A DNA stretch of 64,000 bases from a virus. Both the position numbers and the translations under genes were made by a program. This document shows positions 31,001 to 56,641 of the stretch, in pieces. How positions within the stretch are numbered: the stretch's first letter is position 1; each line of letters opens with the position of its first letter. The notes below the pieces were generated by a model. The model made no database searches. It was not told where the DNA came from and saw only the letters and a list, made by a program, of their open reading frames with translations. The stretch is from IMG/VR virus record IMGVR_UViG_3300045999_013174; one strand, given 5' to 3'.

Positions 31001-34000
31001 TTATGACCTCAATGAGAAGAACCGGCTTAACCCTGGCGGAACCCGGATGGTTTACCGCTTGCCGGGTAACAGGGTTATAAAAGTGATTGGCGATAACACC
31101 CAAGCTGGTCGGGTTCAGAATCTCGCAGAAGGAATTGAGGATTTTACGCCTATGGTTTACGAGTCCGGGCTGGACTATGTGATTGTAGAGGAGCTTCCTC
31201 CGCCTTCAAGCGCAAATTTCAAAAACTTCGCCTCTTGGCTTAGCAAGACAAAGGCTGAGGACTGGATAAAGAAGCCTGAAGCGTTCCGAGAAAAGCTTGC
31301 TGAGTTTGGTCTTGAGAAAATACTTGACAAAGGATATTCTCTTGCTTATGGAGATATTACTGCGATTGAGAATTGGGGAGAGCGCGACGGCAAGATTATG
31401 CTTGTCGATGCGGGAAGCCTTGTTGCCGGATACCAAGTGTCGGGCAGTCTTGATAAGGCAGAACAAGTTCTCGCAGAGAAGACTGTTGCGACCAAGGAGG
31501 TGTTGGCTACAGACGCTCCGAAGGCTACGGTTTTGTTCCAAGCTGCGGCCCCCTTGCCGCCTTCTCCATGGCAGAATCTTATTGCTACGAACCGCCAGGC
31601 TCACAAGGCGGTTGTCAAGATGACCAAGAAAATCATCAAGGCTAACGGGAAGGTCGCAAATGATGTTGCTAATATCCTTATCGACACAATAGCTCAGGGG
31701 TTACCTGATATGCCGCCAATGCCAAAAGACATAGCGTTTGATTATGTAATCAAGGGTATGTCTGAACTTGGCATTCAGCCTGATTATACAGGTATGGCGG
31801 TGCAGCCTGATGAGATTGAATTGAGTGTTGGAGACCTCAATGTAAAGACGGTTTTCACCCGGGTTCAGCAATCAAAGAAAGTTTCCGGCCGGCTCCGCCA
31901 GGCGCTTACCCGTGCGGGAAGGCTTTATGACGTAGAGAACCAAGGCCTCGCTTCTGAGCTTGCTAATGCTATTATTGAAGAGTATGGCCCAAGGGCTGCT
32001 ATGGCGATGGTTAAGGCCGGAATTATAAAAGGGGCGACAAGCTCATTTATTTACGGTGCCGTCATTGATAAAATGTCTTCTGAAGGCTCTAAATATTCAG
32101 AGATAGCAGAGGTTATAAATGACTTTGCGCTACATCAGCGTGAGCTTGGTCGCGGGATAGCCGCCCTTAACGAGGTTTATGTAAGAAGCCCACAGGGTCT
32201 GTATTACATGGCCCTCCACGCGATGAATCAAACAAATGCTGTAGCAACTGCCTCGGCTACCGGGGCGGCCACAGCTCTTTCCGGTCAGCTTGCTGCAGCC
32301 CAGCAATCCGCAGCGGCTACCGTGGCTACTAATATTGCTCGTGGCGCAACATCCGGAACCAGCAGGATATCAACCGACATTCCGGATTTGATAATCATGG
32401 GTCAGCAGGAGAAGATGAAAGCCTTGAAAAAAGAGGCGAATGATATCCTCCGTCAGCTCAAAGGGCTCGGCTCTCAACTTCCATTCGCGGCTCCTACAGG
32501 ACGAATCCAAGCCCTTCAATCGCTTGGCAAGCTCGACCTTGTTGTTTCCCTCGGTGCAAACTTTATCAAGAGGGGCAATGTTCAGTTTAGTATTTGGGCT
32601 GCGCGGTTTAAGAAGTCACTATCATCAGCAGGTATAACCTTTGACAAAGATGACTTGCAATACGTTTGGGAAACCGCCGAAGTTAAGAAGACTCTTCAAG
32701 ATACTCTTGATTCGGGCCTTGCTCCTCTCGACGGCCCAATCAGGGATTACCTTCGCTCTACCCAAACGAAGCTTGCTGCTATTGTGCGGAAGCGGGCTGC
32801 CGACCGGACGATAAGCCTTCAGAATTTGGCTGACGATATTGCAGCCTCTCTTGCTGTAGACCCTGTGGTTGCCAGCCGTCTCTCTGCCGCTATTCTTGCC
32901 GACATTGACAAGATGTCTAAGGCTATGCAGCAGAAAATTGTTGAGAAGTTTCATAAGAATCTTACTAAGAAATTCGGCGGCAACAAAGAGGCTGCCGAGG
33001 CTTCCTTAGCAGACTTGGTGAATCTTGTCAACATGAACCAGGCCAACCCGCATGACATCGCAGAGGCGATAAAATTTGCTTTTGGCGGTGTTTCTATGTC
33101 GGACTCTCAGTCGGACCAGTTTATCAAGCTTGCCGAGGATGTGTTCAAAACCCGGGAGGGCTCTCGAAATCGTCAGATTGCTCAGAAGCGCCTTGTTGAG
33201 TTTACCAACAGTTTATACAAAACCAAGTTTGGAGACTTGTTTTGGATTTTCTTTTACCCAAATCAGCTTGCCGGCATCAGTACGCAAGTGGTAAACACCA
33301 TTGGAAACTTCTACAACACTCTCGCTCAGATGCTCATTTATGCTCACACAGACATACGCAATGCTGTCCGTATGGGTCTTGGGACATCTTTGATTAATTC
33401 ATTGTTGGAGCTTTCTCAGCAGGTTGGCACAGGGCTGCAGAGCGCGAAGCTTGTAATGGAAACGGGTATCGCTGGCTCCGGGAATAAGTATGCAGACCTT
33501 AAAGCCGCCACTAAGAATTCAAAAACCATCGAGGATGACCTTGGTTATAAGATTCAGAGTTTTAGCGGGCTTTCTACAGCGGAGGTGTTCCCTGTTGCGG
33601 TACGAAACCTGTTTAACGGATTCATGCTGCTTAATCAAGCGTTCTTGAAGTATTTCCCGGTGAGGTTTATGACCGCTGTGGATAATGCCTTCTATCAGGC
33701 TACATACGAGAAGTCTATCCGCAGACAGTATATCAACGAGCTTTATGAGCAAGGGTTTCGTGGAAAAGCGTTACGCGATGCTGTATACGAAGCAATGCAC
33801 GGAACTGATACGGATGTTCAGACCGCTGCTCAGGAAGCGTATGCTGAAATGGTCGACGCGCAAATCCCATTCTTCGACAATCAGAAGCTTGCGGATTATA
33901 TCCTGGCGAAACAGCTTAGCGGTGAGATTAAGGCTGCTATAAATAGTGCTATTGGCGCGGGTTCTGGAACTTCTCCTTTGCCTCCTCTCGCCGAGCTTAT

Positions 34001-35819
34001 GAATATGCTCGGGTCAGAGACCACTGGGCCTCTAATGTCTGCTGCGTTAATACAGGCGGACCCGAGTATTTTGGCTGAGCGAAGCTTGTGGTCTACGGCC
34101 GCGAAGGTTGCCGTAAGGGAGATTATTCACTCCCGCTCGATTCCTGAACACATTGCCGACAGGGCTTCGCGCCAGTCGATGTATGTGACATTGAAAAATA
34201 CGCCCGAAGGGTTTCTTGGGGTTATTGCCGCCGTTACGTCGATGGCCGTAAATACATTCGCTCCGATTCGATTCCTGGTTCCGTATGTTAATGTCCCGTT
34301 CAATATCGCCAATATGTTCCTCGATTGGTTCCCGCTAACCTCTGTGCCCCGCGCAGCCGGCTTGTCGCTATCGAGGATGTTTGGACCAACGTTCCTGCAG
34401 CGATTTGGTGTTAAGCCATCATCGTATTCTGAGGGAACGGCGGTTCAGTATGGACTGGAATACGACCCTGTTATGCATCAGGAGCAAAAGGTCAGGGCTA
34501 TGTATAGTACCCTTATTGGTATCTCGACATTTGCATACTACGTCTCGAAAGCACTTGGGGATGATGAGGAGGAGGAAGGCCCGGCAATAACCGGAGGTCT
34601 CTTCAATGTGAGATATGACCGCGCCGGGAAGACCCAAAAGCCTTACACCATAAAGATATTTGGCGAGGAGTTCTCTTATGAGAACACGCCTTTATACCTC
34701 GTCCTTGCCTCGGTAGGCAACACGTGCGACATAATCCGTCAGCTTAAGGCTGAGGGTGCTGAGCAAGGTGGTGTGAGTTTCGATGCTTTAATAAGCAACT
34801 CGTTGACCTCAATGACTTACACAGCGTTGTCCTTGTTTGATGCCTTGCCTATCAGTGGCCTCGAGGGGATAATGGGGATTCTCTCTTCAAGGGAGAAGGG
34901 GGCTGCGTCCATGGGACTTAAAGAAAAGGCTCTTTTGAGAACAGCCCAGGGACTTATAAAATCCCTGCTTACTCCGGTTCCTATTGTGGGCAACAACTTT
35001 GTGAAGCAGCTTGAGCAATTTAATGACCCACGCAAGTACGTTAATGATGTGTACGACCCTGAGGTGTTTCTTGCGAGAGCAACTGGTCACGTATTGATAA
35101 ACACCCTGTCAGACGGGTCTCTTGTTATGAGAGATTATCTTGGACGCGAAGTTGTTCAATATCCTGGCGCAAGGAATATCAAGACTCTTGAGATTGCTGA
35201 GAAGTCCGACATTGACCGCTACATCTACTCTAAGCATCTGAATTTTATTCCGGTATCAAAGGATTCCGAGGTTGCGGTTATTGCTAAGGGGCCAAATGGT
35301 CGGGAATCCGGGACCCTTGTGAAGCTGACTGATGATGTTCAGCTTTTTAACGAAGCTTACACCGCCGGTGGTACTATTATGCGAAAGTATCTTGGTGAGT
35401 TTCTCCCTCTGCTGAAGTCGCTTAACGACACTCAGCTTGAGAGAGAGATTATCAACCAGGCGAATGAATGGCAGCGAAAGTATGTTATTGAAAAAATAGA
35501 AGACGCCGAGTTTTCCAAAACGAAAGAAGGCTTTAAGGCCTCTTCGATTCCTGACGATATTTCTGTTGTGTTCTCCGGCTGGGGGCGCAACCGCGAATAT
35601 GCCGATGGGGTTACCCGGATTTCCGAAAATGGAAGTATCCTAAATATCCTTCGGGATATTAATAAATCACCGGTTTCCGCAAGGGAATCTAAGCTCAGGG
35701 ATTTGCGCGCTGTTCTCAATGTTAAGACCGAAAGCGAGAGGGTTAGGGATAAGATTCGGGAAGAGGCAGAACGTCGAAACTTAAATGTCAATAATTTGGA
35801 CATCGTAGTTCCTGAATAA
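22026..35819 (+). CDS. giant multidomain virion protein (4,597 aa), putative ejected polyvalent protein
   Basis: Single stop-free 13.8-kb frame. Coiled-coil N-terminal quarter. Pro/Ala linkers, including (PA)n at 26395-26487. A small domain repeated three times. HExxH...E zincin motif at 30060. Gly-loop/VDAG kinase-like segment 30920-31450. Multiple hydrophobic helices 33240-34900. Confidence 0.8.
   Translation: [4597 protein letters not shown]
26395..26487 (+). repeat. coding (Pro-Ala)n low-complexity tract inside the giant gene
   Basis: Translates to [31 protein letters not shown], a linker. A second P/A-rich linker lies at about 30590-30683. Confidence 0.7.
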
Positions 35820-41896: not shown

Positions 41897-42307
41897 ATGA
41901 GCGGCATTAAATTCTGCGGGCAAACACTGGTGTGTACTCCAATAAAGTACACGCTCGCCTGTTCTAAGAAGGAATACCAAAAGGTTCTTCAAGGAATAGG
42001 CTATGAGGATTGGCGCAAAGAGGCTTTTACCCCGAACGAAACCACAGCATGCGTTCACACATTTACATCCGACAGCGGGCAGACAATAAAGATTGTGTGC
42101 ATCGACCATCAAGCCACAAAGGATTGGCCCATAGAGGAGGCTTATGCTGTGCTTGTTCATGAGGCGGTGCATATATGGCAAGACACAAGAGTCCAGCTCA
42201 ATGAGGCGCAGCCGAGCAGTGAATTTGAAGCGTATAGTCTGCAGAATATTTGCGCCGAACTTTTTTACCTTTACTCGAACTTTGCCAAGGAGCAGCAGTC
42301 GCCCTAA
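41897..42307 (+). CDS. small HExxH protein (putative minimal zinc metallopeptidase)
   Basis: ORF track start 41879 is a TTG; ATG at 41897 preferred. Contains VLVHEAVHIWQD (HExxH) with downstream SEFEAY as possible third ligand. Confidence 0.4.
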   Translation: MSGIKFCGQTLVCTPIKYTLACSKKEYQKVLQGIGYEDWRKEAFTPNETTACVHTFTSDSGQTIKIVCIDHQATKDWPIEEAYAVLVHEAVHIWQDTRVQLNEAQPSSEFEAYSLQNICAELFYLYSNFAKEQQSP

Positions 42308-42345
42308 GCCCAGCCTAACCCACTAATAAAACGAGGACAAATAGT

Positions 42346-42729
42346 ATGAGCGTAGCAAAAAAGACTAACCCTAAGCTTTGGGAAGCGGCTAAGTCTAAAG
42401 CAAAGGCCCGGATGGGAGGGAAGCACTCTGCCAGGGCGATGCAGCTGGCGGTGTCTATTTATAAAAAAGAGGGGGGCGGATTTGAAGGAAAGAAATCTTC
42501 ATCCAATAAGTTATCCAAGTGGACAAAGCAAAAGTGGCGGACGAAGAGCGGGAAGCCTTCAGGTGAAACCGGAGAGCGGTATCTCCCTGAGAAGGCTATC
42601 AAAAACCTGACGAGCGAAGAGTATGCGCAAACAACAGCGGCCAAAAGAAAGGGCTCAAAAAAAGGGCAGCAGTTTGTAAAGCAGCCAAAAAAAATTGCTG
42701 AAAAAACAAGGCGATACCGCAGTTCATAA
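42346..42729 (+). CDS. small lysine-rich protein
   Basis: 127 aa. N-terminal PKLWEAAKSKAKA..SARAMQLAVSIYKKEGGGF resembles a widespread uncharacterised small-protein family (recalled, not searched). Very basic C-terminus. Confidence 0.45.
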   Translation: MSVAKKTNPKLWEAAKSKAKARMGGKHSARAMQLAVSIYKKEGGGFEGKKSSSNKLSKWTKQKWRTKSGKPSGETGERYLPEKAIKNLTSEEYAQTTAAKRKGSKKGQQFVKQPKKIAEKTRRYRSS

Positions 42730-42767
42730 TAAACATCTTACCTTTCATAACCAAAACAAATCCAATC

Positions 42768-42998
42768 ATGCCAAACAATCCAAAACCTAAATTCCCTAAA
42801 ATCGACAAGAAGCTTGGGCCTCATTTCGGCGCCGGAGCCATCGGCACCTTTGCTGCCGCGTACGCTCCCGAAATCGGAGCTGCCGTTAAAAGAGGCGCCA
42901 AGAAGGCTAAAAAGGCTATCAAGAAGACTGTTTCAAACATTAAAAGCAAATCTGCCAACAGGCGGACGGCCGATGGTGTGGTGAAGCGCAAAAAGTAA
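42768..42998 (+). CDS. small lysine-rich protein
   Basis: 76-aa ORF, about 28% Lys/Arg. Confidence 0.4.
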   Translation: MPNNPKPKFPKIDKKLGPHFGAGAIGTFAAAYAPEIGAAVKRGAKKAKKAIKKTVSNIKSKSANRRTADGVVKRKK

Positions 42999-43017
42999 CC
43001 GGATACTCCGGCTGCAA

Positions 43018-43037
43018 TCAATCACAATCAATCACCT
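43018..43037 (+). repeat. tandem direct repeat 2 x AATCAATCAC
   Basis: GCAATCAATCACAATCAATCACC immediately upstream of the 43-aa lysine-rich ORF. Confidence 0.4.
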
Positions 43038-43050
43038 AATCTCAAAAACC

Positions 43051-43182
43051 ATGTACAACAACTCAGACAAAAAAACAATGCCCCTTGCCAAGAAGAAGAC
43101 ACGCAAGACAGGCAGCAAAAAACCTGTAGCGCAAAAAGGCAAAATGGCTAAAAAGGCCATGGCTATGCGCAAAATGAAGTAA
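43051..43182 (+). CDS. very small lysine-rich protein (43 aa)
   Basis: ATG-initiated 44-codon ORF below the ORF-track cutoff (MYNNSDKKTMPLAKKKTRKTGSKKPVAQKGKMAKKAMAMRKMK). Preceded by a tandem 10-mer repeat. Confidence 0.3.
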   Translation: MYNNSDKKTMPLAKKKTRKTGSKKPVAQKGKMAKKAMAMRKMK

Positions 43183-43202
43183 CCAGCAAACCAAGCAGAC
43201 CG

Positions 43203-43469
43203 ATGGCCCGCAACAAATTAGCAGGTAAAGGCACCGGCCGGTACAATGAAAGTACCGGCCGTGACTATTCGTATGACAAGAAGTATCAGGCGAAGAAAAA
43301 GCAAAAGAAGTATCGCGCAAAACTAAACAAGGCCAATCGAGACAGCGGCACCTATGGAAACGGAGACGGTATGGATAAAAGCCATACTAAGAGCGGAAGG
43401 CTCGTTAATGAGAAACAAAGGTGGAATAGGGCTCGTAATGGAGCAAACGGAAAATCAACTAAAAAATAA
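43203..43469 (+). CDS. small basic protein
   Basis: 88-aa ORF rich in K/R/N/G. Confidence 0.4.
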   Translation: MARNKLAGKGTGRYNESTGRDYSYDKKYQAKKKQKKYRAKLNKANRDSGTYGNGDGMDKSHTKSGRLVNEKQRWNRARNGANGKSTKK

Positions 43470-43474
43470 CCGTT

Positions 43475-43957
43475 ATGAAAACAGATGCGATTACTTTGTC
43501 AAGGATTGAGCTTATGCACCCGAAGGTTCGAGAAGAGGTTCGGCGCATGTATGAATCAATTTGCCAGGCTTTAACCGGTAGAGCTCTTTGCCGATTCACG
43601 CACACCTTAAGGACATTCGAGGAGCAGAATGCATTATTTGCACAAGGGAGAACAGCTCCCGGGAAGAGGGTCACTAACGCCCGGGGTGGAGCGTCGTTTC
43701 ACAACTATGGGCTCGCCTTTGATATTTGCCTTATTGTTGACGGGAAAACCGCCTCGTGGGACATGAAGAGCGATTTTGACCAAGATAGAAAGTCTGATTG
43801 GATGGAGGTTGTTGCTATCGCAAAGTCATTTGGGTGGGAATGGGGCGGAGATTGGAAGAAATTCCCGGATGCTCCGCATTTCCAAAAGACCTTTGGTTAT
43901 ACAACCAAAGAACTCATGGGGCTACGCAAGGCGAATGCGACATATCCTGATATTTAG
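43475..43957 (+). CDS. endolysin, peptidase M15 family (L-alanyl-D-glutamate peptidase type)
   Basis: SFHNYGLAFDI (H-x6-D) and DAPHFQ (D-x-H) zinc-ligand motifs typical of VanY/M15C phage endolysins. Confidence 0.8.
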   Translation: MKTDAITLSRIELMHPKVREEVRRMYESICQALTGRALCRFTHTLRTFEEQNALFAQGRTAPGKRVTNARGGASFHNYGLAFDICLIVDGKTASWDMKSDFDQDRKSDWMEVVAIAKSFGWEWGGDWKKFPDAPHFQKTFGYTTKELMGLRKANATYPDI

Positions 43958-44005
43958 CGCTCACTAAAGATGTCAAAATATAGTGCGTTTTAGGTATTAT
44001 CTCTT

Positions 44006-47245: not shown

Positions 47246-47455
47246 GGTAAGCTTATTTTCAACAAGCCATTTAGCCAAATGCTTATAGGCTAAATAGTTT
47301 TTTAAGGCAGGTAGTTTATCCTTTGCGGTCATATTTCTGTTTTAATCCTTACTGAGACCCGCCAGCGCGGTAAGCGGTGTTTATCAACCATTCGGAAATC
47401 CCGAACAGTTGGGGTGCAATTTTGTGAAGCGAATAAAGTGGCGCAAACACGGTAG

Positions 47456-47737
47456 TTAGGCGAGATTGCCAACAGCATCCTCAACCAATTTACGGATTTT
47501 CTTTTTGACTGATTTTTTAAGTTTCCTATACTCATCTTGGTAGTTATCAGCACACCAAACTTCATTAACATATTTTACAGCTTCATTTTTAAAAACCGTA
47601 GCATACCATCGCATTTTAAAGCCATTTGCAGTTACCATTACCATATATGTAGTTTGGCTTGAAGAGAAAGCAACCTCGCCTAACAGCACATTTGCAATAG
47701 GCGGGGTTTCGTGGTTTAATGATGTTTCGTGTTCCAT
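47456..47737 (-). CDS. small protein, MEHE-family paralog 1
   Basis: 93 aa starting ATGGAACACGAAAC (MEHET). N-terminal 30 aa paralogous to the gene at 48645-48848. Start codon bracketed by inverted repeat arms. Confidence 0.5.
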   Translation of the reverse strand: MEHETSLNHETPPIANVLLGEVAFSSSQTTYMVMVTANGFKMRWYATVFKNEAVKYVNEVWCADNYQDEYRKLKKSVKKKIRKLVEDAVGNLA

Positions 47738-47806
47738 ATAAAATTTTATTTTAAGTTGAATAATTCGTTTTCAAAAGTCCCGCCCATCGCAAATCTGCAA
47801 AACGTT
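47676..47806. repeat. imperfect inverted repeat (arms about 47676-47712 and 47771-47806) bracketing the start codon at 47737
   Basis: + strand ..CTAACAGCACATTTGCAATAGGCGGGGTTTCG.. versus the reverse complement of ..AAAAGTCCCGCCCATCGCAAATCTGCAAAACGTTAGTGGC..; arms share TAAC..ATTTGC.AT.GGCGGG..TT. Confidence 0.5.
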
Positions 47807-48107
47807 AGTGGCTATTGTAGGGACGCAGCCATCCCATACGAAAACCGTGTAACATTTTTTGTGTTGTTTCTTGTTCGTTATTATCTTCCAAGTAAGTGTA
47901 ATTCTGTTTTATCCATTGACCGCTTACCAAGTCAAGAACCTCATACAAATCTTTATGCTGTAACTTGCTTACAAAAGCGATAGCATCTGTATGTGAATGT
48001 TTGTAATGCTGTTCAAATTCGGGAGAACAACAGCCGCTAACACACGTTTGGCGCAAGCGGGGCTGACGTGCAAACATCAACTTTAGTTTTTCAATTAATC
48101 TTTTCAT
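47805..48107 (-). CDS. hypothetical Cys-containing small protein
   Basis: 100-aa ORF. Start bracketed by inverted-repeat arms 48030-48068 and 48127-48170. TAAATTTG box upstream. Confidence 0.45.
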   Translation of the reverse strand: MKRLIEKLKLMFARQPRLRQTCVSGCCSPEFEQHYKHSHTDAIAFVSKLQHKDLYEVLDLVSGQWIKQNYTYLEDNNEQETTQKMLHGFRMGWLRPYNSH

Positions 48108-48170
48108 GTTATATCAAATTTAGTTTTTCAAAATCCCCGCCTGTCGCCAAGCGTGGGAGCGTTAGCAGCA
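48030..48170. repeat. imperfect inverted repeat (arms about 48030-48068 and 48127-48170) bracketing the start codon at 48107
   Basis: + strand GCCGCTAACACACGTTTGGCGCAAGCGGGGCTG versus the reverse complement of CCCCGCCTGTCGCCAAGCGTGGGAGCGTTAGCAGC. Same motif family as 47676-47806. Confidence 0.5.
48116..48123 (-). promoter_or_regulatory. -7 box TAAATTTG (minus strand) upstream of gene 47805-48107
   Basis: Minus strand reads CTAAATTTGATATAAC-ATG. Confidence 0.3.
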
Positions 48171-48173
48171 ATT

Positions 48174-48530
48174 TTAAGGCTGACGTTCATCAATATACTT
48201 TTTGCTCGACATGACACCAAATGTAAATATGTTACGAAGAGCTTTGCTAATCAAAAATCCTTCTACAATTTTCAAATCTTCACTTTCTTTAGGTATGTAA
48301 CTTTCTCTAAATATGACCTTTCCATCAACACCTACTTCAACAAACCAAGCCATTTTTCTTTCTGTTGGAATTGATTTAGTTGTGCCTATGTGCATCATTG
48401 GTAAATAATAATCAGAAGGTTTTAACCCGCTAAAAAATTCAACGGTTCTTCTTTGGTTTGTTTCTTTTCGCTCATTCAATTCCCTTTCAAGATTTGAGCA
48501 AAGGTCTTGTAAAATACGTTTCTGTTCCAT
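48174..48530 (-). CDS. hypothetical protein
   Basis: 118-aa ORF starting ATGGAACAGAAA (MEQK). Upstream intergenic region is a 100-nt imperfect palindrome. Confidence 0.45.
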   Translation of the reverse strand: MEQKRILQDLCSNLERELNERKETNQRRTVEFFSGLKPSDYYLPMMHIGTTKSIPTERKMAWFVEVGVDGKVIFRESYIPKESEDLKIVEGFLISKALRNIFTFGVMSSKKYIDERQP

Positions 48531-48540
48531 AAATAAAACT

Positions 48541-48641
48541 GCTGCTAACAGCGTGTTTATGCAAGCGGGCGGACAGCTTGCTGTTAATAATTAAGTTCGT
48601 GCTATGCCCGCCTGACATAAACACGCAAAACGTTATGTGCC
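48541..48641. repeat. 100-nt imperfect palindrome of the same family (arms 48541-48580 and 48601-48641)
   Basis: CTGCTGCTAACAGCGTGTTTATGCAAGCGGGCGGACAGC / GCTATGCCCGCCTGACATAAACACGCAAAACGTTATGTGCC. Shared core CATAAACACGC and GCGGGC. Confidence 0.5.
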
Positions 48642-48644
48642 ATT

Positions 48645-48848
48645 TTAAGACACCTTTGCAATCTCATACACTTCATCAATAAAATGATAATGTGTTGCAA
48701 ATTCTACCATTGCATCATTTAAGCTACTTGCTTCTATATATACCATCAAATCTTTACCCATACTTCGGTATTGGAATAAAAAACGGCACATAACAGCCGT
48801 TTGCTGCAATGGCGGGTTCTGTGGTGTATTTATGCTTTCGTGTTCCAT
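48645..48848 (-). CDS. small protein, MEHE-family paralog 2
   Basis: ORF track gives 48645..49037. Internal ATG at 48848 (ATGGAACACGAAAG, MEHES..) matches paralog 1 at nucleotide and protein level. A perfect palindromic terminator lies between 48848 and 48910. Confidence 0.45.
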   Translation of the reverse strand: MEHESINTPQNPPLQQTAVMCRFLFQYRSMGKDLMVYIEASSLNDAMVEFATHYHFIDEVYEIAKVS

Positions 48849-48874
48849 TGGAATTTTATTTGAGTTTTCCTGAG

Positions 48875-48900
48875 AAAAGGCTCCCCTAAGGGAGCCTTTT
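48875..48900. terminator. perfect palindromic bidirectional terminator-like hairpin
   Basis: AAAAGGCTCCC-CTAA-GGGAGCCTTTT, flanked by A- and T-runs, between two minus-strand paralog genes. Confidence 0.6.
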
Positions 48901-48909
48901 GGCTGTTTT

Positions 48910-49173
48910 CTAAAAAAGATTCCCGTTGTTCCATTTCGCCTCCGTTTTATCCGGGTCTCTGATGTACTCAAAAAGCCGGTCCAAAAGTTCGTCTTTGGTG
49001 CTGAATGCAAAAGCTTGGCATCCCACTCGGACGACAAATCCTCTGCTCAATTCCTCGATGCGCATGTCCTTGATTTTGTTTGCTGATAGGGCTCGGTCAG
49101 CTACATTTACTGGGGTCGGCTCTCGTAAAGTCTCCAAGAGCGTTCCCCCACGCCCGTCCTGTTCATGTTCCAT
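48910..49173 (-). CDS. small protein, MEHE-family paralog 3 (divergent)
   Basis: ORF track gives 48910..49206. Internal ATG at 49173 gives MEHEQDGRGG...; shares the conserved start ATGGAACA(T/C)GAA. Confidence 0.4.
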   Translation of the reverse strand: MEHEQDGRGGTLLETLREPTPVNVADRALSANKIKDMRIEELSRGFVVRVGCQAFAFSTKDELLDRLFEYIRDPDKTEAKWNNGNLF

Positions 49174-49216
49174 TATGTTAGATTTGGGTTTTACAAAGCC
49201 GCCCAAGGCTATGAAG

Positions 49217-49441
49217 TTACTGTTCGCTAAAAAGACTCAATTGGGTATACCTCCTTCTCTTTCTGCACCTGCAGTCGCGCAGCGTTACGGTATTATCAGC
49301 TATTACTTCAATCTTGTCTCCTCTTCGGAAATATCGACGCAGCCGGCGAAGCCAAGATTCGTCAGTATAACAAAGCGGCTCAGCGCATGCGGCAAAGATT
49401 GCTCCGCAGCATTTTCGTTTAACGACTTGAATCATACGCAC
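49217..49441 (-). CDS. hypothetical Cys/Arg-rich small protein
   Basis: 74-aa ORF. Confidence 0.3.
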   Translation of the reverse strand: MRMIQVVKRKCCGAIFAACAEPLCYTDESWLRRLRRYFRRGDKIEVIADNTVTLRDCRCRKRRRYTQLSLFSEQ

Positions 49442-51215: not shown

Positions 51216-51518
51216 TTAGTCGTGGTTCATTAAGAAAATGTTCTTGTTCTTCTTGCGCTCCTCGAGCACCTTTTGAAGCTTCTTTTTGTTGGGGTCTAAG
51301 GATTTGTACCCAATAACCGAAAGAGCATCCTCTATACGGGTGAGAATTTTTACTCCAAAATTCTTCCTCCCGCTCATGAATTTGCTCATGTCAGCCTTGT
51401 GTACATTAGCCCTTCGGCGCAACTCAGAAGTCGAAAGAAGGGTATTTTGGGAGAGGTATAACCTCAGCCTTGCGTTCCATTCATCAAGGCGCTTTCGTTG
51501 CGTGTTGTTCATTCTCAT
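51216..51518 (-). CDS. helix-turn-helix (XRE-like) transcriptional regulator
   Basis: LSTSELRRRANVHKADMSKFMSGRKNFGVKILTRIEDAL fits HTH_XRE architecture. Confidence 0.55.
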   Translation of the reverse strand: MRMNNTQRKRLDEWNARLRLYLSQNTLLSTSELRRRANVHKADMSKFMSGRKNFGVKILTRIEDALSVIGYKSLDPNKKKLQKVLEERKKNKNIFLMNHD

Positions 51519-54061: not shown

Positions 54062-54544
54062 TTATAAACAATCCGAACTTGGCTCGGGTATTATCCAGTC
54101 CATATTAAGTTCATAATACTGACGGATAGCCTCGAGCCTTTCTCCGAATTCTTTGGTGTTGTAGAGCGTCGTTGAGGTTGGGATATTAATCGTCTCTCCG
54201 GTCGCTCCATTGAAGATTGTCACACAGAAAAAATTCGCCTTATTGAACTCATGCATCTGCTGCTTTGATAGTTGTAGCCCGTGCCTTTCCTTGTGCGCTT
54301 TAATCTGCTCTGCGACAACAACGCCATAGTAATAGGCGTTTTGAGCAAGGGAGCGCTTATCGCTATCAAAAACGCTAAGTTCCATCACCAATGTAGAGCC
54401 TTTGAATTGCGATACGAATTCATTAAAAGCCTTTCTGTTGATGATTTTAGCAACCCCCGTGTCGCTATCGACACGGAGGAAGAATCTGTTCTGAAAGCTT
54501 GACAGCTCCTTAATCGACCTCATTGGCATCAGGCTTAAGCTCAA
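54062..54544 (-). CDS. NinB/Orf-like recombination mediator
   Basis: 160 aa. SDKRSLAQNAYYYGVV resembles the lambda Orf (NinB) core ERNRSLDQNRKLWACLGDV, from memory of the family. Confidence 0.45.
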   Translation of the reverse strand: MSLSLMPMRSIKELSSFQNRFFLRVDSDTGVAKIINRKAFNEFVSQFKGSTLVMELSVFDSDKRSLAQNAYYYGVVVAEQIKAHKERHGLQLSKQQMHEFNKANFFCVTIFNGATGETINIPTSTTLYNTKEFGERLEAIRQYYELNMDWIIPEPSSDCL

Positions 54545-55310
54545 GCTGGCGGGCTGGAAGTTTGTTCAAGATATTAATCTTTCGCTCAGCGAAAACCTCG
54601 CTACGAACTTCTGAATAGAGGCTGTTTGAGAGAATGTTCTTAACAGTGCTACCGTACCACGTTTTGTTCCTCTTGGAAGGAATACCCCTACGGGAAAGTT
54701 CGGTGGCGATATACCCCTGCCCGCGCCCATTAAGGGACATAGAGATTATCTCTTTGATGATTTTAATCTCCCCTTCGTGGCGAACAAGGTTACCATCGGC
54801 GTCTGAGACGAATCCATAAGGGTCTTTGCTGTACTTTTTGCGTGACCGCTTAAGCTGCGCCATAGCATCGGAGGTTCGCTCTGAAATACGGGCTGATTCA
54901 AATACGGCAAAGGAGAGCATGAGCGTAAAAAGTAGCCGGCCCGTAGAGGATTGCGTATTGACAATGTTGCCGGCGACATCCGTTGTGTAAAGGCTAATGC
55001 CTTTTGAAGACCATTCATCGACAGTTGTCAAGCCGTCAACATCATTACGAAAAACGCGGTCAACCCGAAGTCCTATAACCCCTACAACATCGGGGTTTTC
55101 GCTAAGATATTCAAGCATCTTGCCGCCCTCGGGCCTCTCTTTAAGAGGTTTGCGCCCGGAAACATCGCTGTCGGCAAAGATTTTTACAGGGAAAACATTA
55201 AGGAACTGGCAAAAGCTGTAAATCTTTTGGTGCTGAACCTCTGTGGATAGGTCTTGGTCGTCAGTGCTTACCCGTATGTAAGCAACAACTTTTTTGATTG
55301 GCTCAATCAT
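54510..55310 (-). CDS. serine recombinase (resolvase/invertase family; possible integrase)
   Basis: N-terminal VVAYIRVSTDDQ catalytic-serine motif, then VIGLRVDRVFRN. 266 aa, shorter than typical large serine integrases. Confidence 0.8.
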   Translation of the reverse strand: MIEPIKKVVAYIRVSTDDQDLSTEVQHQKIYSFCQFLNVFPVKIFADSDVSGRKPLKERPEGGKMLEYLSENPDVVGVIGLRVDRVFRNDVDGLTTVDEWSSKGISLYTTDVAGNIVNTQSSTGRLLFTLMLSFAVFESARISERTSDAMAQLKRSRKKYSKDPYGFVSDADGNLVRHEGEIKIIKEIISMSLNGRGQGYIATELSRRGIPSKRNKTWYGSTVKNILSNSLYSEVRSEVFAERKINILNKLPARQLELKPDANEVD

Positions 55311-56020: not shown

Positions 56021-56641
56021 TTATTTAGGGTTAAGAAGCTTGTTTGTCGTAGCGGAACAATAAAGCCCGCCGAAGAATTGATTTATAGCCTTATTAAAAA
56101 CATCCGCACCCTCTATACCCCACCCGGGGGAATTGTCGCGCTTGAGGGACTGGTAGGCTTTGTCAAAAAGGGTTATACAGGAGCGTAGCTTCATACAATC
56201 GACAAAGCCGAACATATCCAATAGCTGCTTGGAAATGTCTTTGTTTGTAAAGGTTCTGAGCATATAGGACAATAAGTCCACAAGCGCCTCCCTCAATTCA
56301 TCATCGAGAAGGTACTCTTTTGCTTCCTTCATGCCTTTAATGCCGTAGAAGCGGGATATTCTGCTTTTGCCGAGACCTCTTATCTGCGGGTACATAAACC
56401 ACATATAGCACATGCTCTTTTTCCCTGCTGCAATATCAGCTTTTGCAAATAAATGCATACCCGCGGAGGCAAGCTTAAAGCGGTCAAGCCCTACCCCTGC
56501 AACGGTGTTGAATACGTGCCTTGCTGCTTCGTAATAATCGGAGCCGCGAAGTTCCTGGGCGCCAATATACGCCTTGATGAAGACCTCAAGGTCGAGGTCG
56601 TTTTCCCTCATTAGTTTGAGGGCAAGTTCTGATTTTTCCAT
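56021..56641 (-). CDS. hypothetical protein with conserved WFMYPQIRGLGKS motif
   Basis: 206-aa ORF. The motif is reminiscent of a DUF-type family (recalled, unverified). Confidence 0.4.
   Translation of the reverse strand: MEKSELALKLMRENDLDLEVFIKAYIGAQELRGSDYYEAARHVFNTVAGVGLDRFKLASAGMHLFAKADIAAGKKSMCYMWFMYPQIRGLGKSRISRFYGIKGMKEAKEYLLDDELREALVDLLSYMLRTFTNKDISKQLLDMFGFVDCMKLRSCITLFDKAYQSLKRDNSPGWGIEGADVFNKAINQFFGGLYCSATTNKLLNPK

Follow-up and report, generated by a model that had tools for sequence, protein, structure and literature searches.

Probable attC-like recombination sites around four small-gene cassettes in a viral genome

The IMG/VR virus record IMGVR_UViG_3300045999_013174 provides a stretch of 64,000 nucleotides (nt), which we analysed as a whole and call the window. 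The minus strand is the coding strand for the window's genes across 47.1-64 kb, and this block includes a row of four short genes accompanied by GC-rich inverted repeats. An earlier note on this DNA had read the repeats as a structured RNA or an operator at the gene starts. In this regard, we compared them with related sequences from phages and bacteria, and we propose that they are very probably attC-like recombination sites bounding four cassettes, judging from sequence comparison. The cassettes would form a phage-borne array without its own recombinase, and the elements would fold as hairpins in single-stranded DNA.

Elements and cassettes in the window

Three complete imperfect palindromes (E2, E3 and E4) were found on the minus strand, which is the sense strand of the genes, and they lie where the earlier note had placed its three copies. 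A loose pattern for the arms has five matches in the window where 0.66 would be expected, and none of 100 shuffles reached five. Read on the sense strand, an element starts with a 15-nt box ending in TAAC (R''ext), followed by G and a 4-nt bulge. A stem of about 20 bp, with the inner section GGCGGG/CCCGCC, encloses a loop of 34-75 nt, and the returning stem leads to T and to the GTTA that opens a second 15-nt box (R'ext). A half copy (E1), a terminal remnant at 47455-47469 and the pairing of the outer boxes across the genes had been overlooked before. The features are listed below from the upstream end of the array; a unit comprises a hairpin, the gene downstream of it and a terminal TAAC box, and protein lengths are in amino acids (aa).

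48780-48848, minus: half element E1 at the upstream end of the array, with a loop holding ATG 48848-48846 and a 3' arm; the 5' arm is absent.
48816-48811 (CCCGCC) to 48794-48791 (T-GTTA), minus: 3' arm of E1; its R'ext box is 48794-48780.
48645-48848, minus: cassette 1 gene, 67 aa, beginning MEHESINTPQNPPLQQ; it starts in the E1 loop and stops at the 5' edge of the R''ext box.
48632-48646, minus: R''ext-TAAC box of unit 1, AAAATGGCACATAAC, complementary to 48780-48794 across the gene.
48546-48635, minus: E2, the 90-nt self-contained short-loop hairpin of unit 2, without ATG in its loop and with ATG 48530 downstream; folding z = -4.97.
48174-48530, minus: cassette 2 gene, 118 aa, wholly between R'ext 48535-48549 and R''ext 48161-48175.
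48038-48164, minus: E3, the 127-nt hairpin of unit 3, with TAAATTTG (48122) and ATG 48107 in its loop; z = -5.68.
47805-48107, minus: cassette 3 gene, 100 aa, which stops at the TAA of the next TAAC.
47681-47807, minus: E4, the 127-nt hairpin of unit 4, with ATG 47737 in its loop; z = -5.33.
47455-47808, minus: unit 4, made of hairpin E4, the gene 47456-47737 (93 aa) and the R''ext-TAAC box 47455-47469.
47455-47469, minus: terminal R''ext-TAAC remnant that closes unit 4, with decayed arm fragments beyond it.
47333-47454, minus: tail past the last TAAC, with decayed 5'-arm-like pieces, TGTTTGCGCCAC and ATAAACACCGCTTACCGCGCTGGCGGG, at 47357-47384; a 3' arm is absent.

The earlier note had expected the minus-strand sequences to fold better than shuffled ones, and this was borne out, with z = -5.0 (E2), -5.7 (E3) and -5.3 (E4) and none of 200 shuffles as good. 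The plus strands of the same elements folded less well (z = -3.0 to -4.0). Its description of the gene starts was also accurate, since ATG 47737 and ATG 48107 lie between the arms of E4 and E3, and the third copy (E2) is a self-contained palindrome upstream of ATG 48530. In the sense-strand fold, the start codons of E3 and E4 are in large open loops and are not sequestered, and about 20 codons from ATG 48107 run on through the 3' arm of E3. The -7 promoter box that the earlier note had placed in these loops is present in E3 (TAAATTTG at 48122) and absent from E4. Among the long loops of the wider family, the Bacteroidota -7 motif TAnnTTTG was found in only 2 of 71, and a sigma-70 promoter scan found nothing sigma-70-like in the element loops. 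The idea of self-promoted cassettes was dropped, as neither promoter search revealed a promoter common to the loops.

The outer 15 nt of each arm have their pairing partner not in the other arm of their own element but in the neighbouring element, on the far side of the gene. Specifically, 48780-48794 pairs with 48632-48646 at 14 of 15 positions (unit 1), 48535-48549 with 48161-48175 at 15 of 16 (unit 2) and 48027-48041 with 47804-47818 at 13 of 15 (unit 3), and 47670-47684 and 47455-47469 are the cognate boxes of unit 4. In all four cassettes, 13-15 of 15 positions are paired and a G stands opposite a T at position 11 every time, whereas non-cognate box combinations in the window have just the consensus in common, as the pairing matrix indicated. 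Complementarity of the cassette start to the inverse core of its own site is the signature that first defined the boundaries of integron cassettes. The same relation was found here, with the cassette start complementary to its own site and not to the adjacent one, and the complementarity is extended to 15 nt.

Two reading frames cross GTTA, and the frame in which a given 15-nt box is read varies, which indicates that the boxes are constrained as nucleic acid. The idea of exon shuffling, in which N-termini encoded in the loops would be fused to any cassette, was ruled out by the same two observations.

Some further features stand next to the array. Directly upstream of E1, at the expected site of its 5' arm, an 11-bp GC-rich hairpin with A/T runs beside it (48875-48900) is terminator-like on both strands. 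The genes starting at 49172, 48848 and 47737 on the minus strand share ATGGAACAYGAA (MEHE...), and two of these starts lie in element loops. One of the three, the gene at 48910-49206 (minus), has no surrounding arms and might be a fully decayed unit.

The element family and the exchanged unit

By using a structural pattern with 20 fixed bases, we obtained 21 plus 92 viral contigs, i.e., 113 viral loci, in which the element lengths cluster tightly at 89-91 and 123-131 nt. In bacterial genomes, a 21-base pattern gave at least 120 loci, nearly all of them in Bacteroidota, and these loci were taken as stretches of at most 8 kb. A structure-only scan, for which TAAC, GTTA and stem complementarity alone served as criteria, detected 222 elements in the first 113 loci and 3 in reversed-sequence controls. 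Across all fetched loci of Bacteroidota phage contigs and genomes, 718 distinct elements were collected. Near-identical copies of E2 are present in 21 viral contigs with unrelated flanks, and copies of E3 that are 95-96% identical are attached to different gene bodies in two contigs (L083 and L102).

TAAC and GTTA are present without exception in the 85 distinct elements that were aligned. The RNAalifold consensus contains 20 pairs, of which 11 show compensatory changes, and several pairs occur as three or four pair types. The covariation for which the earlier note had hoped is thus present in related sequences, and its view that selection acts on the nucleic acid and not on the protein was supported, as both arms are conserved and covary though one of them is coding. 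The nucleotide identity of the first codons is then explained by the selection of the arms as nucleic acid. The family has the hairpin architecture of attC sites, with paired outer R''/R' and inner L''/L' boxes and an AAC...GTT core. In addition, 50 of 98 adjacent box pairs in the family reach at least 8/11 Watson-Crick matches beyond GTTA; at the same threshold, the share is 1% for pairs within an element and 2.4% for shuffled partners. The G·T at position 11 occurs in 49 of the 50 cognate pairs, all variable positions covary, and the pairing ends at position 16.

To define the unit, we compared pairs of element copies from different contigs and counted a hairpin as the same at 90% identity or more. 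When the downstream cassette was shared and the upstream one differed, the hairpin was the same in 38 of 55 pairs; when only the upstream cassette was shared, this was so in none of 8. These counts define the unit as the hairpin, the downstream gene and the terminal TAAC box; the breakpoint is TAAC|G. The classical integron polarity, in which the upstream gene owns the hairpin, was rejected by this test, and the same geometry is instead read on the other strand.

Whole units were found to be gained or lost at the position AA|C / G|TT that is typical of attC recombination. The unit 47455-47808 of the window recurs in an unrelated phage contig (L086/L237) with a gene body about 97% identical, and on both sides of the unit TAAC marks the exact limit of the similarity. 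The two copies agree in both arms and differ in the loop. The rest of the 64-kb window had no match to any fetched locus. Between the contigs L048 and L041, two additional whole units are present at TAAC|GTTTTGCA with flanks that are 100% identical. Flavobacterium phage vB_FspS_hemulen6-1 differs from a close relative (L033) by one additional 476-nt unit, the flanks being 100% identical over 300 nt and TAACGTT alone being common at the junction. In these insertions and deletions, merely 7-12 nt at TAAC|G are common between otherwise different hairpins, which argues for site-specific rather than homologous exchange.

Elements of this family also occur in described phages. In hemulen6-1, at least 12 elements at 2.7-8.7 kb bound four DNA methyltransferase genes, a helix-turn-helix (HTH) gene and small open reading frames (ORFs), and in Polaribacter phage P12002L, 56-58-nt versions lie on either side of a methyltransferase gene. 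Qi et al. (2023, PMC9892861) reported clusters of attC sites lacking integron-integrases (CALINs) in 17 phages, virulent phages being concerned, and noted methyltransferase cassettes too; their P12002L_attC1 site (TGCTAAC...GTTAGGC) has the same architecture as the window elements. A nucleotide search of positions 47300-49300 against 50,697 GenBank phage records gave nothing at E 1e-5, and a permissive search with E2 gave arm-length matches only, pointing to Flavobacterium phages. Rfam 15 contained no matching family, the sole hit being a chance-level Phe_leader outside the elements (E = 0.83). In the open-access literature, we found the family, its recombinase and the phage platform described nowhere beyond the phage CALIN report, although the coverage of open-access sources is no proof of novelty.

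The cargo of the cassettes fits an accessory gene store. DNA methyltransferases are the dominant group in the phage cassettes, with 14 N6/N4 methyltransferases, 3 C5 methyltransferases and one match each to Dam and Mom among 96 phage cassette proteins, and the bacterial cassettes are varied, with Mrr, AbiJ, reverse transcriptase, Fic and kinases among them. The four cassette proteins of the window gave no PHROG or Pfam match. A separate observation concerns Pedobacter psychrophilus, where a short, high-coverage contig of an isolate genome (8951 nt) carries nine elements within 8 kb; it is possibly a plasmid or phage-like replicon that consists almost wholly of cassettes.

The array-linked recombinase and the folded strand

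In relatives, a tyrosine recombinase with an intact R-K-H-R-H-Y set adjoins the arrays. Its C-terminus reads ...HxLRHS.ATxLLE.GTD.R.IQ..LGH...TT.IYTHV...SP, and bacterial loci encode versions of 352-374 aa, phage loci versions of 255-282 aa. Among NCBIfam models, the close relatives are nearest to the XerA/integron-integrase model (169-223 bits, cutoff 220), for which a distant homologue (L059) scored 85, and the closest solved structures are XerA proteins. An independent test was seeded from the recombinase rather than from the elements and covered 80 viral loci. Here, 204 elements share the strand of the recombinase and lie upstream of it; the opposite strand has 11 upstream, and the two downstream positions have 4 and 5. 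An array was present in 50 of the 54 phage loci having more than 1.5 kb upstream of the recombinase, and it usually ends 90-750 nt ahead of the recombinase gene. In 12 genome loci with a close homologue, the recombinase was always at the same end of the array, and this end is the same in phages and bacteria relative to the polarity of the elements. Related phages place the recombinase gene where the window has its tail at 47333-47454.

Several other observations concern recombinases. The array-linked enzyme was looked for in hemulen6-1 and P12002L and is absent from both; both phages are annotated with a NinG/Rap junction-specific endonuclease. The only recombinase of the window is a 266-aa serine recombinase (54510-55310, minus; Pfam Resolvase and Recombinase), which is unrelated to the array-linked enzyme. 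The ORF at 54062-54544 (minus) overlaps this gene downstream and may be its C-terminal part, split off or frameshifted. In six bacterial loci, the array-linked recombinase has an extra N-terminal domain of about 90 aa that is absent in three phage loci. In most bacterial loci examined, the recombinase gene is co-oriented with the cassette ORFs and opposite to the element polarity, and the phage recombinase follows the element polarity.

The orientation of the genes with respect to the elements differs between the two groups. In phage arrays, the cassette ORF is on the element (folded) strand in 121 of 128 cassettes, whose median length is 288 nt; bacterial cassettes have a median length of 884 nt, and in 75 of 82 of them the ORF and the element lie on different strands. 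The ratio of G·T to A·C on the same element strand was 158:11 in phages and 245:20 in genomes (about 13:1). Since the G·T-rich strand stays constant although the gene orientation flips, the folded strand is set by the element and the recombinase, not by transcription. In integron terms, the sense strand of the window would correspond to the bottom strand of attC, with the crossover at RYYYAA|C.

The loops differ as well. An ATG is present in 70 of 71 long phage loops, and 82 of 150 phage cassettes behind long elements start within the loop; in 53 phage cassettes the TAA of TAAC serves as the stop codon, and in 55 the stop codon is found 12 nt upstream of it. A secondary role of the loop in translation is possible in phages, because nearly every long loop holds an ATG. 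In bacterial loops, ATG is absent and two ACCACnAA...CGnAGnAC repeats are found, and the phage loops are recognisably homologous to them. As a side observation, the motif ACCACnAA(n7-12)CGnAGnAC occurs twice in the loops of 126-nt elements at bacterial loci, that of P. psychrophilus included, where it is possibly a binding site for an accessory protein; phage loops retain traces of it around the ATG.

Elsewhere in the window, an AT-skew spike of 0.28 at 42001-44000 stands out from the composition profile, in which the absolute value is at most 0.13. One ORF of 4597 aa (22026-35819, plus) is located in the plus-strand structural half of the phage genome, and a DUF1810-family protein is encoded at 56021-56641 (minus) in the minus-strand gene block (Pfam E = 3e-29).

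Weighing of the explanations and implications

The likeness of the elements to integron attC sites is extensive. Both are imperfect palindromes of 55-130 nt with an invariant AAC...GTT and outer (R) and inner (L) boxes around a variable loop, and one strand folds better than the other. Each cassette has one site, the orientation is uniform, the cassette start is complementary to the inverse core of its own site, and whole cassettes are inserted or deleted at AA|C / G|TT. The ORFs fill the cassette and stop within the site, a tyrosine recombinase is located at a fixed end of the array in the relatives, and the bacterial arrays even have the classical gene orientation and cassette size. Methyltransferase cassettes are shared with the published phage CALINs. 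The differences lie in the R stem, which here has 15-16 bp with an invariant G·T instead of about 7 bp, and in the stem irregularities, which are a one-sided 4-nt bulge and conserved mismatches rather than the two-sided unpaired spacer and the canonical extrahelical G and T of attC. In phages, moreover, the genes are reversed and the loop supplies the start codon and the N-terminal codons.

Other Xer systems provide a further comparison. Xer recombination acts on folded single-stranded DNA at CTX-phi attP(+), and the pdif modules of Acinetobacter plasmids have inverted arms of about 11 bp at their borders, to which the recombinase binds. A one-strand hairpin used by an Xer-type tyrosine recombinase and, in pdif, discrete gene modules are common to these systems and ours, but they use host XerC/D and dif-like sites and lack arrays of cassettes that each bear a long hairpin.

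According to the mechanism we propose, an excised circle would have the two cognate 15-nt boxes flanking the hairpin, which would add a stem of 15-16 bp containing the crossover point. An Xer/IntI-like tyrosine recombinase would presumably cut and rejoin the G·T-rich strand at TAA|C, and whole units would thereby be inserted, excised and exchanged between phages and between Bacteroidota genomes. Replication would then resolve the single-strand exchange, as in integrons. Which enzyme serves the recombinase-less array of the window is a matter of inference. In the phage variant, the genes are reversed compared with classical cassettes and the loop would have been recruited as the translation start and the first 17-20 codons or so, which would explain why one arm is coding and why the first codons look paralogous. 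A stem of 15-16 bp has the length of an Xer-type binding arm, and this may explain why it exceeds the classical attC R box of 7 bp. From the core GTT/AAC, the invariant G·T at position 11 is one helical turn away, and it converts a second 'AAC' to 'AAT'; we speculate that it marks a non-cleavable second contact.

Several points weigh against this interpretation. The full RYYYAAC and GTTRRRY 7-mers are present in only 7.8% and 8.1% of the 718 elements, the core consensus of the family being (A/C)TAAC-G and T-GTTA(G/T) instead. The recombinase scored 139-207 bits (L059, 43) with the integron-integrase model TIGR02249, whose cutoff is 265, and the match is split in two pieces except in L059. It also lacks the IntI-specific insertion, with 22 residues against 64 in Vibrio IntI4 (2a3v) / VchIntIA. 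Phage ORFs, those of the window included, are not co-oriented with the top strand of attC, while the bacterial arrays are classical. The only published assay of an element built like these, P12002L_attC1, was negative with class 1 IntI1, which failed at this site alone (PMC9892861). The 64-kb window encodes no homologue of the array-linked recombinase and has none next to the array as an integron platform would, which makes the array integrase-less and CALIN-like and leaves its activity unproven. Together with the decayed tail, the missing 5' arm of E1 suggests a partly fossil array, and the array of the window may be largely fixed and serve simply as four expressed small genes. Finally, the support is wholly comparative, no circle or recombination product having been directly observed, and in phages an RNA structure would be just as compatible with the G·T wobble pairs.

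The last point leads to the stem-loops in mRNA that the earlier note had favoured as a gate for translation. It is unlikely that hairpins in the sense transcript control translation or stability, with the 15-bp long-range pairing closing each cistron. The sense strand does fold best, pairs of the G·U type are abundant, and the ATGs in the phage loops agree with such a role, which may have been acquired secondarily in phages. However, the structured strand is antisense to the genes in most bacterial cassettes, where it is unchanged and the loops carry no ATG, the start codons are in open loops and not occluded, and Rfam contains no matching family. The unit-exact insertions and deletions, the linkage of hairpin and downstream gene and the recombinase at a fixed end would also be left unexplained. 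The promoter early stem-loops (PeSLs) of T4-type phages, in which a sigma-70 promoter is joined to a terminator hairpin and which are exchanged by homologous recombination (PMC2839356, PMC4122927), offer another model. They too recur as structured elements among small, variable phage genes that are not essential, modular shuffling and proposed mini-circles have been associated with them, and the PeSLs are known to mediate such shuffling. Portable linkers of this kind, with conserved promoter and terminator cassettes and genes shuffled by ordinary homologous recombination, would account for conserved elements between variable small genes of an accessory region, for the E2-type cores in contigs with unrelated flanks and for the loop swap between identical arms. 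Yet we consider them quite improbable here. The elements lack the strong sigma-70-type early promoter joined to a terminator stem-loop, as the loops of 35-75 nt have no T-run, are not terminator-like and carry no sigma-70-like promoter, the -7 motif being rare. The junctions fall exactly at TAAC with only a few bases in common between otherwise different hairpins, no hairpin was common when the upstream gene alone was shared, the covarying stems mean that structure and not sequence homology alone was selected, and a dedicated site-specific recombinase is tied to the arrays.

Single-strand 'peel-and-paste' transposition by an HUH enzyme, in which units with a subterminal hairpin are inserted 3' of TAAC, would fit units that start right behind TAAC, end with TAAC and have a strand-specific hairpin at the left end. 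IS200/IS605 elements, though, have hairpins at both the left and the right end, while the units here combine a single hairpin with a 15-bp long-range stem, and the enzyme linked to the arrays is consistently a tyrosine recombinase and not an HUH protein, so that this explanation is very improbable. Hardly any credence is left for double-stranded operator half-sites bound by a looping regulator such as the protein at 51216-51518, as had also been suggested before. The arms are indeed inverted repeats around gene starts and the gene of the candidate regulator is nearby. However, this putative HTH protein matched no PHROG or Pfam family, the arms vary between copies and covary, and the family extends to hundreds of unrelated phages and bacterial genomes. 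The strand-specific G·T wobble pairs speak against an operator in particular, because a double-stranded site would have no reason to keep them.

Returning to attC-like sites as the preferred explanation, we lean, by a small measure, to a broader proposal. The elements may belong to an undescribed integron-like branch that is pervasive in Bacteroidota and their phages and that combines an Xer-like recombinase without the IntI insertion with attC sites of a long R stem. Its phage platforms would be complete, with the array followed by the recombinase, the genes flipped and the attC loop co-opted for the start codon and N-terminal codons, and its phage cassettes would mainly encode methyltransferases and small proteins, maybe for anti-defence. 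If so, the same cassette currency circulates between unrelated phages and host chromosomes.

Gene capture and shuffling have their textbook example in integrons, yet research on these has been confined almost entirely to Proteobacteria and IntI-type integrases. If Bacteroidota have a parallel system with a simpler, Xer-like enzyme, this would bear on the descent of integron integrases from Xer recombinases, and the system may provide a new recombinase/site pair for Bacteroidota engineering. Phages that themselves run cassette platforms would make it concrete how orphan methyltransferases and other small accessory genes are turned over so rapidly in 'hyperplastic' regions. The signature of a TAAC-hairpin-GTTA element with cognate 15-nt boxes could be used to delimit hundreds of small uncharacterised phage genes as discrete, exchangeable units, and in the window itself, this interpretation would account for four orphan ORFs and their odd common first codons.

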